Origin: an uncultured Bacilli bacterium
GTDB taxonomy: Bacteria > Bacillota_I > Bacilli_A > RF39 > UBA660
Assembly: GCA_944355355.1 (NCBI GenBank)
Contig: CALVQE010000002.1
Coordinates: 704 to 64,703, forward strand
Reading direction: 5' to 3'
Length of the DNA: 64,000 nt
Within the stretch, counting starts at the first letter, position 1; each line of letters starts with the position of its first letter. Position numbers and translations under genes: made by a program. Below, in pieces: positions 12,687-19,236 of the stretch. The notes below the pieces were generated by a model. That model searched no databases. It was not told the DNA's origin and worked only from the letters and a program-made list of their open reading frames with translations.

Positions 12687-12714
12687 TTGGCAACCCATTA
12701 AAGTATGGTACAAT
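12687..12714 (+). promoter_or_regulatory. Sigma-A-type promoter for the SPFH/zinc-ribbon module
   Basis: ttggca (12687-12692), 16-nt spacer, tacaat (12709-12714) preceded by TGg. Confidence 0.5.
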
Positions 12715-12820
12715 GAAAAAGGATAGAGAGATTATAAACGTTAAGTGTGGAGTTTAAACTAAGTATAACTCTCGTGTTAATCGACTATCAAAAGAAATGC
12801 TAAAGAAAAGAGGTATATTT

Positions 12821-14056
12821 ATGGGTTTTATTAAAGCATTTACTGGCGCATTGGGTGGCGCTTTTGCAGATCAATGGAAAGATTTCTATGGTCCAAGAGG
12901 AGGTGTGCCTAGTACTGCAGCCATTTTTGAAGCAGTTCCACAAGGGACGAATGCTGGACGTGGTTCAAATACTCAAGGTTCTGAAAATATCATTACCAAT
13001 GGTAGTAAAATCATTGTTCCTGAAGGAACAGCATTAATCACATTACAAGACGGAGCTATTACAGGATTAATAGCTGAACCAGGAGGATTTATTTATACAT
13101 CAGATGATCCAAATTCTAAATCAATGTTCTCAGGAAATGGTATTCTATCATCAACAATAGGACAATCTTGGGAAAGATTTAAATTTGGTGGTCAACCAGG
13201 ATCTGAACAAACAGCATTTTATGTTAACTTAAAAGAAATTCCAAATAATCGGTTTGGTACTCAATCTGAAATTTATTGGGATGATGCATACTTAAATGCT
13301 CAAGTAGGAGCAATGACAAGAGGAACATATACGTTAAAAATTGTTGATCCATTATTATTTGTCAAAAACTTTGTTCCTGCAAAATACTTACAACCAGGAG
13401 CACCTGTTTTCGATTTTGCAGATATGGATAATGACGCAGGAACACAATTATTTAATGAAGTAGTAAGTAGCTTATCCGCAGCTTTCTCACAATATACAAA
13501 TGATCCAAATAAAGGGAATCGTATTTCGAAAATTCAAGGTGATCAAATAGGCTTTGCTCAGTCTTTATCTGCTGCTGTAGAAGAAGGTTATCAATGGAAG
13601 TCTGATCGTGGCCTTGAAATTGTCAAAGTAGCAATTCAAGCAATTGAATACGATGAAGATTCTAAAGCATTACTAAGCGATGTTAAAAAGGCTGATGCCC
13701 TATCAGGTTCAAGAGGCAATGCTTTCATGCAACAAGCTGTTGCTCGTGGTGTTCAAGCTGCTGGTGAAAACGAAAATGGTGGCGGAGCTGCCATGGCCTT
13801 TATGGGAATGGGTATGAATGCTGCTGGCGGTATGATGCAAGGTGTTGCCCAACCTGCTACAAATCAACCAAATCCATTTATTAATGTTGGCCAAGCTCAA
13901 CCAAGCACTCAACCTGTTCAACCAACTCAAACATCAGCCCAACCAGCTCAAGAAGATCTATATGCAAAATTAACAGAACTAAAAAAACTATTAGATAATG
14001 GTGTGATTACTGCGGAAGATTTTGAGGCAGCCAAGAAAAAATTGCTAGGAATTTAA
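12821..14056 (+). CDS. SPFH (band-7) family protein of the COG4260 / YdjI 'virion core protein-like' type, with a C-terminal SHOCT domain
   Basis: N-terminus MGFIKAFTGALGGAFADQWKDFY is typical of this family. Gly/Met/Gln-rich linker. The C-terminal LYAKLTELKKLLDNGVITAEDFEAAKKKLLGI matches SHOCT. Confidence 0.8.
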   Translation: MGFIKAFTGALGGAFADQWKDFYGPRGGVPSTAAIFEAVPQGTNAGRGSNTQGSENIITNGSKIIVPEGTALITLQDGAITGLIAEPGGFIYTSDDPNSKSMFSGNGILSSTIGQSWERFKFGGQPGSEQTAFYVNLKEIPNNRFGTQSEIYWDDAYLNAQVGAMTRGTYTLKIVDPLLFVKNFVPAKYLQPGAPVFDFADMDNDAGTQLFNEVVSSLSAAFSQYTNDPNKGNRISKIQGDQIGFAQSLSAAVEEGYQWKSDRGLEIVKVAIQAIEYDEDSKALLSDVKKADALSGSRGNAFMQQAVARGVQAAGENENGGGAAMAFMGMGMNAAGGMMQGVAQPATNQPNPFINVGQAQPSTQPVQPTQTSAQPAQEDLYAKLTELKKLLDNGVITAEDFEAAKKKLLGI

Positions 14057-14058
14057 TT

Positions 14059-15549: not shown

Positions 15550-15554
15550 TTTAT

Positions 15555-16508
15555 ATGATTTGTCCAAATTGTAAAGCCCAAAATATCGATGGCTCAAATT
15601 TCTGTGTAAAGTGTGGTAAAGCGATGACTACGCCACCTCAAAATGACAATATTTTTTCGAATGTCCAAACGCCAGTTACGCCAAATAATGTTGGGGTAGA
15701 ACCCGTACAAGTGAATTCTCCAAGTCAAAATATACCATCTGGGATGGCCAGTTTTGTTAGCGCAGGACCAAGTGTTTCTCCACAACCGACCCAAAATGTG
15801 GAATCACCTGCCGTTACTACACCAGTGGTTTCGAGAACTTCTAGTATAACCATAAAAAATTATTTCTTTATCATTTTAGCTGTAATTTTAAAACCATTTA
15901 CAGCTATAAAAGAAGAACTAGCCAAATTTAGTGATTTAAAAAACTCGGCTATTTTAACTGGAATTGTTGCTATAATTGCAACACTTGCGTCTTTAATTCA
16001 AACGATGATGAACGCCGTTGTTGTAACCAATTACAACATCTTAAAAGGAACGACAACCACTTGGGTATGGGACAATTTAAAAAATGTAGAATACGTTAAA
16101 GTGATTGGCACAAATCTTCTTGCTTATGCTGGAGGAATTGCCGCCATTGCAGCTGTTTATTATATTGCTAGTGCTATTTTAAAACGTCAAGCTAACTTTG
16201 CACGTCTTCTTGGATTAGGAGCTTTAAGTGCCGTTCCATTCTTACTTTGTGCTTTAGTAATAGCACCATTACTGTCTTTGATTTATGCTCCACTTGGAAT
16301 AGTCGTAACAATCTTTGGACTAGTATATACCATTTTAATTTTATATGAAGGTGTAGGTCAAGAAATTCCAATGGAAGGAAATCAAAAATATTATTTTCAT
16401 TTGATTTGCTTATCAATCTTACTTGTTGCTGCTTACTACGTTTACATTAAGTTTTTTACCGTAACTGTAAGTGATGAATTAGATAATATTTTGGATTTAT
16501 TAAAATAA
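15555..16508 (+). CDS. Zinc-ribbon, Pro-rich linker and five-TM (Yip1-like) membrane protein
   Basis: MICPNCKAQNIDGSNFCVKCG, then a P/Q/V-rich linker, then multiple TM helices. Confidence 0.7.
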   Translation: MICPNCKAQNIDGSNFCVKCGKAMTTPPQNDNIFSNVQTPVTPNNVGVEPVQVNSPSQNIPSGMASFVSAGPSVSPQPTQNVESPAVTTPVVSRTSSITIKNYFFIILAVILKPFTAIKEELAKFSDLKNSAILTGIVAIIATLASLIQTMMNAVVVTNYNILKGTTTTWVWDNLKNVEYVKVIGTNLLAYAGGIAAIAAVYYIASAILKRQANFARLLGLGALSAVPFLLCALVIAPLLSLIYAPLGIVVTIFGLVYTILILYEGVGQEIPMEGNQKYYFHLICLSILLVAAYYVYIKFFTVTVSDELDNILDLLK

Positions 16509-16522
16509 AAGGATGTGAGAAT

Positions 16523-19236
16523 ATGTTTTGTCCCAATTGTGGTCAAAAATTGAATGGTGACGAGGGGTTTGTCCAAACTGTGGTTATGAGATGTCACAAA
16601 TTAAAAAAAAACTAACAGTCGCTGAGCAACTTGAGCAAAAAAATCCTCTAAAGCCAATTGCTTTAAAAATAAAATCAGGTATTCAATATAGTGTGAATTT
16701 TATAAAACAACATCAAAAAAGCTTCTGGATAAGTGTAAGCAGTTTAACAGTTTTCATTATAGCATTTATATTATTTCAAACACTATATGATTTTTCTAAA
16801 ATTCAGTGGGACGAAGAAGCTAAAGACTATAATGTTTCCTATACTGAAGGTGGAGTGCTTTCTCTTGCGGTCTTAGCCTATGATAAAAATGAAGAACCTA
16901 TCACCAACATATCTTTTGAAGTAACTGGAGGAAATATAGAGTTTGAAGGTACAAATGTCCAATGGACTTTACCTGTTGAAACGGGTACCTATACCATTAC
17001 CGCCAAAACGCCAAGTGGTAAAAAGATAACCAAAGAAGTGACCGTAATTCAAACATTAAAAGAGTCAAATTTAAATGGTGTGGTAGCTGAAGAGAGTAGT
17101 GACGAAACCGACAGTGATAACGATGGTTTAACAGATGGTAAAGAAAAAAGTATCGGTACAAATATCCATTCTGCAGACAGCGACCAAGATGGACTATTAG
17201 ATTCTTATGAAGTGCAAGAAAGTCTAACAAATCCATTAAAAGCAGACAGTGATAATGAAGGCTTAAACGATGGGGATGAACTTGCCTTGGGCTTAAATCC
17301 TTTACTAGAAGATTCCAATGGTGATGGTCAAAAAGATGGTCAAAGATCTTTAACATATCAAATTATTGATGAAAAAAGTGGCATTTCCCTAAACATAAAT
17401 GGCAAAGGAAATATTCCAAGCTCAACGATAGATGTTTATGAAAGTGATGCTTTTGATGAGACAAATGGCTTATTAAACACAGTATATAACTTTTATACGA
17501 GTGGAACCTTAGAAAGTGCCACGGTAGAAATTCCTTATTCTATAGAAAAAGTAAATGCTAAAGAATTAAATGAGGATAATTTAACATTATATTATTTTAA
17601 TGAAGAAACAAAAGCATTAGAGCCAGTAGAAACAACAGTGAACAAAACAAATCAAACAATTACGGCAACATTAAATCATTTTTCAAAATATTTAATCGGC
17701 GATTCTAATACGGTATTAAAATCTCAAAAAACAGATTTATTATTTGTCATTGATAATTCCGTTTCAATGTATACGGAAGAACAAATGATTGAAGCCGGGT
17801 ATAACAATAGTGTTGGAACCGAAGGAAACGATTCGACATTCAAAAGGTTAACATTAACAAATCAACTCATGGATATGTTAGGAAAAGGCTATTTGTTTGG
17901 AGCTGCTGAATTTTCGGGAAATTATGTAAACATTCAAAATTTTACAGAAAATATAACTACAGCCAAAGAAAAAGTAAACAGCATGAAAGCAAATTGGGAA
18001 AGCAATACCAATGGTACAGATATCATTGAAGCCCTAGAAAAAGGAATTGCCGAGTTTGAAGATACGGAAAACGCTCATTATTTAATGCTCTTAACCGATG
18101 GTAAAAATACATCTGGGTCTCTTAGTGCTAACCGTCAAAAAATCATTTCGGCGGCTCAAGAGGAAAATGTAAGTATTTGTATAATTGGTCTAGGTAGTAA
18201 AATCGATACAGAAGATTTGACGGCTATAGCCAATGAAACAGGGTGTGCTTATTATAATGCGAAAGACGCTAATGCTTTAGATGAAATCTATGCGACGATC
18301 GCTTCGAAAATAAACTATAATCTCGTTGATATTGATCAGGATGGTACAGTAGATGGTACCGTTATCGCAGACAGTGGGTTCCTCGCTAATCGTGATGGCT
18401 TTTCCTTTTCGAATTTCCGAAGTAGTAAATCTGCAAATGGACATTGCTACGGTATGGCTTTGTTTGCCCAACTTTATTATACAAAACAATTACCTACTTC
18501 TTTAGACGCTGTTCACAAACATACAATCTTCAAGCAGTTTGAACCAGCTAATGCCTATGATTTAACAGATACCTATTTTGAAACCTATCAAAACTTATAC
18601 GACTATGAAATGACAACAGAGGCAATGCGTTTTCTTTTTTATGAACGACCTAACGATTATCGTGATCGGGTAGAAAATGAAACGTTAATGATTAAACAAG
18701 AATATTACGATCTTCTAATGGATATCGGAGCATCAGTTTATGATGTGGATTATAATGGAGATGGTTATTCTAAATATCAAAGCGGTCAAATTAACTTAGA
18801 CAGTGATAAATTTTATGAAAATACAACCAAAGAAGAAAATCAGCTTTTAAATGCAATTTATCGTTTGTTTGTTCTTCAAGTAGATGATTCTCGTTTATCA
18901 TTTTCATCAGATCCTGACAAAACATATGCTACTCTTGTTGAAAAACTTGATCAAAATATTCCTATTTTAACCATTATTTATGGTGAACATGCTATAAATG
19001 CAACGAAACTCATTCAAGATAACGAAGATGCCAATCGCTTTTATATCGAAGTGTATGACAACAATGGTCCAGGAGAAACTAGATATATTGAGATGCAACG
19101 TTCTAAAATGAACAAGATTCAACTATCTTGGACCGCATGGACAAATGACTATTCGTATACATTTAAATACGATAGAGATAATGATGGTACTTTAGACGAA
19201 ATAAGTGTTCAATTATCTGAGCCAGAAATAGAGTAA
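16523..19236 (+). CDS. Double zinc-ribbon / TM / TSP3-like Ca-binding repeats / vWA / putative papain-like domain surface protein (apparent 1-nt frameshift at 16568-16570)
   Basis: ATG 16523 encodes [16 protein letters not shown]. The ORF-track frame (from 16591) is already open at 16561 and reads ..[10 protein letters not shown]. One extra T in the TTT run restores a double zinc ribbon. Other motifs: DSDNDGLTDG / DSDQDGLLD / DSDNEGLNDGDE repeats, vWA MIDAS DNSVS and LLTDGKNTSG, and GHCYGMA...GEHAINA. Confidence 0.8.

Follow-up and report, generated by a model that had tools for sequence, protein, structure and literature searches.

A SamI/SamG-type gene pair without adjacent pspA, followed by exchangeable zinc-ribbon membrane proteins, in uncultured Bacilli

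Introduction

The pspA-ydjGHI operon of Bacillus subtilis, now named pspA-samGHI with YdjG, YdjH and YdjI as SamG, SamH and SamI, is the closest described counterpart of the locus examined here, a run of four genes in a 64-kb stretch of DNA from an uncultured Bacilli bacterium (contig CALVQE010000002.1; the whole stretch is referred to as the window). In B. subtilis, SamG and SamH recruit the soluble SamI, which then recruits PspA (PMC8581546). SamI has also been reported to restrain SamGH in development, a phenotype for which PspA is dispensable (bioRxiv 10.64898/2026.02.06.704340), and the SamGHI/YdjGHI mechanism is only now being worked out in this species. YdjG has been described as two zinc ribbons, an uncharacterised domain and a transmembrane (TM) segment, and band-7 and SHOCT domains have been proposed to assemble sub-membrane complexes (Ravi et al. 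2024, PMC11237479). The association of Band_7_1 with SHOCT, which is that found in gene 1 of the window, is the commonest context of the SHOCT domain (Eberhardt et al. 2013, PMC3581485).

Each operon encodes a soluble SPFH protein of the Band_7_1 type, which has a low-complexity linker rich in G/M and a small module at its C-terminus, together with a membrane-anchored partner that carries two ribbons (gene 2 in the window, YdjG in B. subtilis), and a Zn_Ribbon_1-type ribbon is part of both systems. However, neither pspA nor ydjH/samH was found within 10 kb of the core pair in 86 loci or in the 64-kb window, and the order is inverted relative to the B. subtilis operon, with the SPFH gene first, as an earlier reading of the window (the sequence-only reading) had observed. 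The SPFH protein ends in SHOCT here but in a ribbon in B. subtilis YdjI. The gene 2 protein exceeds YdjG by 155 aa and, where YdjG has its single C-terminal TM segment, it has a TM hairpin and a conserved tail in the cytoplasm. Downstream of the pair lies a variable array of membrane proteins tagged with ribbons.

Other described systems are less similar. The PspA/IM30 (ESCRT-III-like) effector of the phage-shock (Psp) system was not found here by phmmer in the 86 loci or the window. In the HflK/C-FtsH, QmcA-YbbJ/NfeD and flotillin-NfeD systems, as in this locus, an SPFH gene lies in an operon with membrane proteins thought to be organised by the SPFH protein, but gene 1 itself encodes neither a TM segment nor a membrane hairpin, NfeD and FtsH partners are absent, and the partners are defined by a zinc ribbon rather than by the NfeD OB-fold. 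Eberhardt et al. (2013) cover the Band_7_1 and SHOCT architecture only, with no pairing to a YdjG homolog and no ribbon-bearing neighbours. The PspA-free contexts given by Ravi et al. (2024) involve PspC, Toastrack and HAAS, whereas here a YdjI/YdjG pair is found with ribbon-tagged clients, and Psp surveys (PMC11237479, PMC9239133) describe YdjG domains and PspA-free contexts but not the present arrangement. The sequence-only reading knew of no account of this architecture, and none was found in full-text literature searches, the scope of which excluded most subscription journals. What is new is a PspA-less SamI/SamG-type core with exchangeable ribbon-tagged membrane proteins, and this general pattern is better supported than the fixed four-part unit that had been put forward.

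Methods

Coordinates are window positions and the operon genes are all on the + strand. Gene neighbourhoods were surveyed in 81 non-redundant loci, all from uncultured metagenome-assembled genomes, in which the gene 2 proteins are 61–70% identical to that of the window. Most of these genomes are labelled as Bacilli, Tenericutes, Mollicutes or Clostridia, and many derive from animal or human gut samples. The set searched for pspA and ydjH consisted of 1325 open reading frames (ORFs) from 86 loci (10 kb on either side of the core) and the 71 ORFs of the window. The reference was a B. subtilis-type pspA-ydjGHI operon in a metagenome contig (L103), found by using the ydjG cloning primer (PMC8581546) as an exact DNA pattern, and the YdjG, YdjH, YdjI and PspA sequences used as queries are those of this contig.

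Domains were called with Pfam profiles against their cutoffs, homology was assessed with BLASTP, phmmer and hhalign, and the structure of the gene 2 protein was predicted with AlphaFold2. Six contigs of the same species (L001–L006) were compared with the window, as was a related contig with an intact gene 4 (L104).

Results

The core gene pair is related to ydjI and ydjG

Gene 1 matched Band_7_1 at 24.8 bits (cutoff 24) and SHOCT at 35.2 bits (cutoff 27), the latter at the C-terminus, in agreement with its initial description as an SPFH protein with a C-terminal SHOCT domain. The two domains are separated by a low-complexity linker rich in G/M and Q/P. No TM helix was evident in the protein; a crude count flagged the G/M-rich linker as one hydrophobic stretch. 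An AAGAGG ribosome-binding site precedes the ATG at 12821, and the 411-aa call was identical in six metagenome contigs. BLASTP aligned the protein with YdjI inside the SPFH domain (5e-6), and a phmmer search with YdjI matched 79 gene 1 orthologs, with E-values down to 5.8e-12. All 80 gene 1 orthologs end in the SHOCT helix pair, with the motif ...KLLDAG.I[ST]QE[DE][YF]D..K..LLG, and none of the 80 has a CxxC pair. The C-terminus of YdjI in the reference operon is an FCPNCG...FCPNCG ribbon, preceded by a G/M-rich linker that resembles the one in gene 1. The gene 1 product is a soluble YdjI-type SPFH protein.

Gene 2 fell below every Pfam threshold. It encodes two TFIIB-type ribbons (CxxC-Xn-CxxC), in which seven of the eight cysteines were invariant and the remaining one, C51, nearly invariant among 56 diverse homologs (26–72% identical). 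BLASTP aligned the protein with YdjG over 354 columns (1e-22), and hhalign of the family profile gave 99.9% (E 3.2e-33) over 313 columns that include both ribbons and the whole central domain. It is a true YdjG/SamG homolog. Taken together, genes 1 and 2 are almost certainly homologous to YdjI and YdjG, and the proposed link to pspA-ydjGHI reflects real homology.

An AlphaFold2 model of the gene 2 protein built from the diverse 56-sequence alignment had a predicted local distance difference test (pLDDT) score of 85.4 and a predicted template modelling (pTM) score of 0.83. With 14 close homologs only, the pLDDT was 38.6 and the model was unusable, a problem fixed by the diverse alignment. The model contains the two ribbons, a cytoplasmic domain of about 240 aa with strands of roughly 25–35 residues, a TM helical hairpin at residues 373–418 and then a further strand and helices that form the conserved cytoplasmic tail. 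Both termini and the large domain lie on the same side of the hairpin, and the protein is predicted to be anchored by the hairpin and to have nearly its whole mass on the cytoplasmic side. The two ribbons and C-terminal hairpin recognised by the sequence-only reading were thus recovered both in the homologs and in the model.

A Foldseek search of the Protein Data Bank (PDB) with this model returned nothing at E ≤ 1e-3 except the TFIIB ribbon, and so gave no support for the published NTF2/YpeB-like assignment of the central domain of YdjG. The only significant structural matches, over 249–324 columns, were to two giant-virus proteins carrying the annotation DnaJ-like subfamily C member 3, one from Yasminevirus (A0A5K0UBJ7, E 6e-8) and the other from Edafosvirus (A0A3G4ZSZ8, E 8e-7). 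Genes 1, 2 and 4 and a profile of the gene 4 C-terminal domain gave nothing informative when searched against PDB sequences. Gene 2 therefore has a confidently predicted fold with no counterpart among solved structures, in a family of 3741 clusters at 50% identity (E ≤ 1e-3) that is present in at least 548 species genomes.

Conservation of the pair and of its neighbours

Gene 1 lies immediately upstream of gene 2 in 80 of the 81 loci, and the conservation of the core across species is close to that of serS. In two independent assemblies, Band_7_1 is naturally fused to a gene-2-like protein (P0183, 682 aa), and fragments of an SPFH domain are fused to gene 2 in two further proteins (P0085 and P0111). 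Within this clade, genes 1 and 2 form an obligate pair that is fused in one lineage, and the P0183 fusion provides indirect support for recruitment of the SPFH protein by its membrane partner.

The genes that follow the core are far less constant. An ortholog of gene 3 was found in 29 of the 81 loci, a gene-4-like vWA protein in 15 and a ribbon-led M4 peptidase in five, with the vWA and M4 types never together. All four genes of the window were present in 14 loci and, in all but one of these (L034), other genes are interleaved with them. As only the first two genes are constant and gene 4 can be swapped for an M4 peptidase gene, the arrangement is not supported as a four-part unit.

A phmmer search with the authentic PspA sequence found no match at E ≤ 0.01 among the 1325 ORFs or the 71 window ORFs, and the same was true of YdjH, a TPM protein, at the same threshold. 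Three further PspA/LiaH query sequences also gave no phmmer match at E ≤ 1. The absence of pspA from the window is thus upheld, and it extends to the relatives, in which no adjacent pspA was detected within 10 kb of the core.

Distant relatives of gene 2 (33–39% identical) have neither an SPFH neighbour nor ribbon partners, and hence the association is specific to one subfamily. In three instances (L091, L094 and L097) a class A penicillin-binding protein (PBP) gene is next to or near the distant SPFH-less relative, and in another (L099) there are three FemAB genes; these neighbours bring to mind the B. subtilis ydjG mutants, in which cell-wall synthesis is mislocalised (PMC8581546). About 5 kb upstream of one distant homolog are the bAvd and RVT_1 genes of a diversity-generating retroelement (L091:2303–3782), which are probably unrelated.

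Zinc ribbons on membrane proteins downstream of the pair

The gene 3 product carries Zn_Ribbon_1 at residues 3–23 and Yip1 (PF04893, 30.3 bits, cutoff 28.6) at residues 126–287, with a P/Q-rich linker and five hydrophobic segments by a crude count, and its first description as a ribbon, a Pro-rich linker and a five-TM Yip1-like block proved correct. It is one of at least seven mutually unrelated families of downstream membrane proteins that have a terminal CxxC-Xn-CxxC ribbon next to TM segments, and such families make up most of those that recur downstream of the pair. The ribbon is N-terminal in gene 3, the gene-4-like proteins, the M4 proteins and an 820-aa family (Z820), and C-terminal in the C3 (about 190 aa, multi-TM), C4 (about 200 aa, 4-TM) and C15 (about 245 aa) families. 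The predicted exteriors of the downstream proteins are adhesin-like or protease-like on the single-pass proteins, and the array also includes the multi-pass Yip1-type protein.

Genes encoding both a ribbon and a TM segment made up 92 of the 237 genes in the first six co-directional downstream positions but only 14 of the 683 genes in the rest of these loci (odds ratio 30, Fisher P 6e-46, the P-value being inflated by the relatedness of the species). The number of unrelated ribbon-bearing families is a stronger argument than this P-value, and the association of ribbons with the gene 1-gene 2 pair is very probably non-random. The idea that the ribbon is a handle shared by the products of genes 2–4 thus gains from the comparative data, including the ribbon of the same type at the end of YdjI, but does not hold in full for the window strain, in which the handles of genes 2 and 3 are intact and that of gene 4 is disrupted.

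Many of the downstream single-pass partners that have no ribbon (families C6, C7 and C8; for example L007:10489–11400, L017:12423–14168 and L058) start with an N/Q-rich tail that includes the motif [FY]D[PST]xTGQP[ILV]. Of 263 downstream genes, 8 encode this motif, compared with 4 of the 657 located elsewhere. A few members of these families (L020:3494–5281 and L024:5437–6453) carry an N-terminal zinc ribbon instead of the N/Q-rich tail, as if tail and ribbon were interchangeable cytoplasmic handles. One protein of family C6 (L007:10489–11400), a family found in 10 loci, strongly matches EF-Tu domains 2 and 3 after the TM segment (GTP_EFTU_D3, E 2.3e-32; GTP_EFTU_D2, E 2.2e-17), and is a membrane-anchored paralog of EF-Tu D2-D3 located within these clusters of surface-protein genes.

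Gene 4 and its frameshift

Gene 4 matched VWA (PF00092, E 3.9e-15) and TSP3_bac (27.8 bits, cutoff 25), and the residues of the metal ion-dependent adhesion site (MIDAS) can be read in the translation (DxSxS as DNSVS, T in NGTD and D in LTDG). The main ORF encodes, in order, one TM segment, a beta-rich segment, TSP3-type Asp-rich repeats, a second beta-rich segment, the vWA domain and a C-terminal domain of about 300 aa. Much of what had been proposed for this protein was therefore recovered, namely the single TM segment, the TSP3 repeats, the vWA domain with an intact MIDAS and the further C-terminal domain. The Ig-like segment had no profile match, and the supposed double ribbon is a single CxxC-X9-CxxC ribbon that is split by a frameshift in the window.

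An intact allele in L104 encodes a 904-aa protein (P0271) that is 97% identical to the window protein. Alignment of the DNA showed that the window is without one T of the TTTT run present in L104 (Table 1). A split gene 4 was called in four independent metagenome assemblies (L001, L002, L003 and L006), and the DNA alignment shows the deletion for L002; its occurrence in four assemblies indicates a genuine allele, as opposed to an error of sequencing. Programmed frameshifting and phase variation were considered for the break and rejected in view of the short run (just T3/T4) and the non-canonical heptamer, leaving a plain 1-nt deletion allele. With its ribbon lost in this way, gene 4 is either decaying or made without the handle from the ATG at 16591.

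Relatives of gene 4 numbered 503 at E ≤ 1e-10, and all of the 120 that were listed (43–97% identical) were of comparable length with VWA-type Pfam domains, most of them also with an intact Zn_Ribbon_1. In 12 sequences, 33–53% identical, the C-terminal domain has an invariant Cys (in GHCYGMA), His (in HAINA) and Asp/Asn (in VYDNN). A profile search found no PDB sequence match for this domain, and comparison of the 12 sequences with Pfam at E ≤ 5 revealed no recurrent family, the best match being Toxin_15 (E 0.031) in one member. The order of the Cys, His and Asp/Asn is that of a papain-like triad, which makes the domain a candidate peptidase, as a lead only.

Strain-level exchange at position 4

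In two of the same-species contigs (L004 and L005), genes 1–3 are 99.7% identical to those of the window and gene 4 is replaced by an unrelated gene encoding an 821-aa protein with a ribbon, a TM segment and FTP, Peptidase_M4 and CarboxypepD_reg domains (replaceable cassette in Table 1). The left-hand junction is inside the ribbon codons, with homology stopping at 16542, in codon 7 of gene 4, and the right-hand junction is just before the weak terminator. One species hence contains three haplotypes at this position, namely an intact vWA gene, a frameshifted vWA gene and an M4 gene.

In the same two contigs, homology to the window begins only at 12496, 140 nt before the serS stop codon. In L004, the DNA that precedes this boundary codes for the C-terminal portion of a large serine recombinase (L004:3–1235). 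This suggests that a mobile element has integrated at the 3′-end of serS, beside the operon, in the contigs with the M4 allele.

Layout of the operon

The features of the operon are listed in Table 1. The four co-directional genes are present as originally described, with gaps of 2, 5 and 14 nt confirmed both in the ORF listing and by direct reading, and the operon lies in a context of conserved housekeeping genes, between serS and tkt. The sequence-only reading had also assigned the unit its own promoter, a serS terminator upstream and a weak terminator downstream. A TG-extended promoter-like site was found by consensus match, and both hairpins with their T-runs are readable in the sequence. 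A consensus terminator scan did not call the serS hairpin, which has a loop of 12 nt, nor did it call the A/T-rich hairpin downstream, which is visible by reading only.

Table 1. Features of the four-gene operon and its boundaries
Feature	Position	Strand	Description
serS terminator	12633–12665	+	GTAGACA/TGTCTAC hairpin with a T-run after it; delimits the unit upstream; read in the sequence
Promoter-like site	12687–12714	+	TTGGCA-16 nt-TACAAT with TG before the -10; 10/12 match, consensus match only
Gene 1	12821–14056	+	411 aa; SPFH and SHOCT; YdjI/SamI homolog
Gene 2	14059–15549	+	496 aa; two zinc ribbons and TM hairpin; YdjG/SamG homolog
Gene 3	15555–16508	+	317 aa; Zn_Ribbon_1 and Yip1
Gene 4, 5′ fragment	16523–16615	+	30-codon ORF; first CxxC knuckle, then out of frame
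Replaceable cassette	16543–19272	+	blastn boundaries against contigs L004 and L005
Gene 4, frameshift site	16568–16570	+	TTT here, TTTT in L104 (DNA alignment)
Gene 4, main ORF	16591–19236	+	881 aa from ATG 16591; frame open from 16561
Possible weak terminator	about 19280–19309	+	A/T-rich hairpin with a T-run after it; immediately 3′ of the cassette

The best promoter-like match of the region is found further downstream, at 19345–19374 (TTGACA-18-TAAAAT with TG, 11/12). It precedes a 49-codon ORF with one hydrophobic segment (19399–19548), located between gene 4 and tkt. Gene calls for this ORF are present in all six contigs of the species, those with the M4 cassette among them.

Discussion

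An interpretation that we regard as about evenly balanced between right and wrong is that the locus is a derivative of the SamI/SamG (YdjI/YdjG) membrane module, without PspA and SamH, in which the ribbons serve as docking elements of a platform formed by the products of genes 1 and 2. Gene 2 would recruit the gene 1 oligomer to the inner face of the membrane, as SamG and SamH recruit SamI. In Bacillus, a ribbon would tether the scaffold, while in this clade the scaffold carries SHOCT and the ribbons would tether client membrane proteins. The platform might then cluster, stabilise or restrain surface-exposed clients such as the vWA/TSP3 adhesin-like protein, the M4 or putative cysteine peptidase and the WG-repeat proteins, with the client at position 4 being a strain-variable cassette. 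The role of the ribbons as handles of the module is favoured by the ribbon on YdjI, the gene 1-gene 2 fusion and the lack of ribbon partners around the SPFH-less relatives of gene 2. The same comparisons point to the platform of genes 1 and 2, and perhaps to gene 2 specifically, as the candidate receptor for the ribbons. That the ribbons physically dock is a step we consider plausible, but we would place it somewhat short of an even chance.

Several observations weigh against this interpretation. Genes 1 and 2 stand alone in 13 of the 64 loci with at least 6 kb of downstream sequence, and several recurrent partners, namely the WG-repeat families, family C6 and a lipoprotein, are usually without a ribbon. 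The window strain tolerates the loss of the gene 4 ribbon. An N-terminal ribbon with a TM segment is common in Firmicutes, and 14 such proteins were found outside the operons. The 81 loci come from related species, and the enrichment P-value overstates their independence. Finally, a pspA gene or a gene for a TPM protein could be located elsewhere in the genome.

Alternatively, the locus might encode an envelope-stress sensor and its brake, a reading now proposed for the B. subtilis system, with gene 2 as the sensor, gene 3 possibly replacing SamH, gene 1 exerting restraint and PspA or another effector encoded elsewhere; the surface proteins would then be mere co-transcribed cargo and their ribbons uninvolved. 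This is unlikely, in our view, but has to be taken seriously. The homology to SamI and SamG, the restraint of SamGH by SamI with PspA dispensable in B. subtilis (bioRxiv 10.64898/2026.02.06.704340), the loci with genes 1 and 2 alone and the cell-wall genes (PBP and FemAB) beside distant gene 2 relatives are all consistent with it. However, it leaves unexplained both the 30-fold enrichment of ribbon-bearing membrane proteins and the shift of the ribbon from the scaffold in Bacillus to the neighbours here. Moreover, the operons show no transcription factor, kinase or other component that could provide an output, and SamH, which drives the B. subtilis phenotype, was not found in the 86 loci or the window. 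The position of the cassette junction, inside the ribbon codons, points in a different direction, as does the presence of three haplotypes at one position in one species. Together with the mutual exclusion of the vWA and M4 types in the 81 loci and the ribbon-TM proteins found elsewhere in the loci, they would fit a surface-protein island that lies next to the SPFH pair by chance. In such an island, the ribbon and TM segment would be a signal-anchor typical of the lineage, and the 5′ codons an anchor for recombination during cassette swaps under diversifying selection. We consider this distinctly improbable. The ribbons of the C3, C4 and C15 families are C-terminal and cannot serve as signal-anchors or as 5′ recombination handles, the ribbon-bearing families are otherwise mutually unrelated, and a ribbon of the same type is found within the B. 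subtilis SPFH protein. In addition, the association persists across loci in which gene 2 has diverged to 61–74% identity with that of the window.

The pairing of SPFH proteins with proteases is well known (reviewed in bioRxiv 10.64898/2026.02.06.704340), and position 4 is occupied either by a Peptidase_M4 protein or by a protein whose final domain has invariant Cys, His and Asp/Asn. An SPFH oligomer that encloses or gates a membrane-anchored protease, after the manner of HflK/C-FtsH or stomatin-NfeD, could thus be envisaged. We find this highly doubtful, as the protease-like domains are predicted to be extracellular while gene 1 is cytoplasmic with no TM segment, a gene of this kind was found in only about 20 of the 81 loci, and assignment of the gene 4 domain as a cysteine peptidase has neither profile nor structural support. 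An anti-phage defence system or a phage-derived module is the least credible of the origins considered and has been set aside, as no relevant match was found in PADLOC or PHROGs. The ribbon region of gene 2 weakly matches PDC-S64, a candidate system in PADLOC (E 2e-5), some PHROGs families whose function is unknown contain matches to SHOCT and the locus is strain-variable, but no match to a defence family in PADLOC-DB spans a full protein, the serS-tkt housekeeping context is conserved and the core is about as conserved across species as serS.

Returning to the platform with docked ribbons, a more general form of the proposal can be offered, which we hold only tentatively and think unlikely to be right as a whole. 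The short Zn_Ribbon_1/DZR-type ribbon that many Firmicute membrane proteins have at their cytoplasmic end might be a docking tag that is read by SamG/SamI-type SPFH platforms, forming the core of a general organising system in which B. subtilis SamI would be a special case, with the scaffold carrying the tag itself. Clients of the adhesin-like, protease-like and Yip1 types would be exchanged as cassettes between strains.

In this clade, the SamI-SamG pair is an evolutionarily stable core that persists without an adjacent pspA or samH. No function has been assigned to the small terminal zinc ribbon of Firmicute membrane proteins in the literature searched, and the locus offers a concrete and testable role for it. 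The module is also linked to strain-variable surface proteins, of the vWA/TSP3 or M4 type, of abundant uncultured gut Bacilli, and could therefore bear on the interactions of these bacteria with their hosts or phages.

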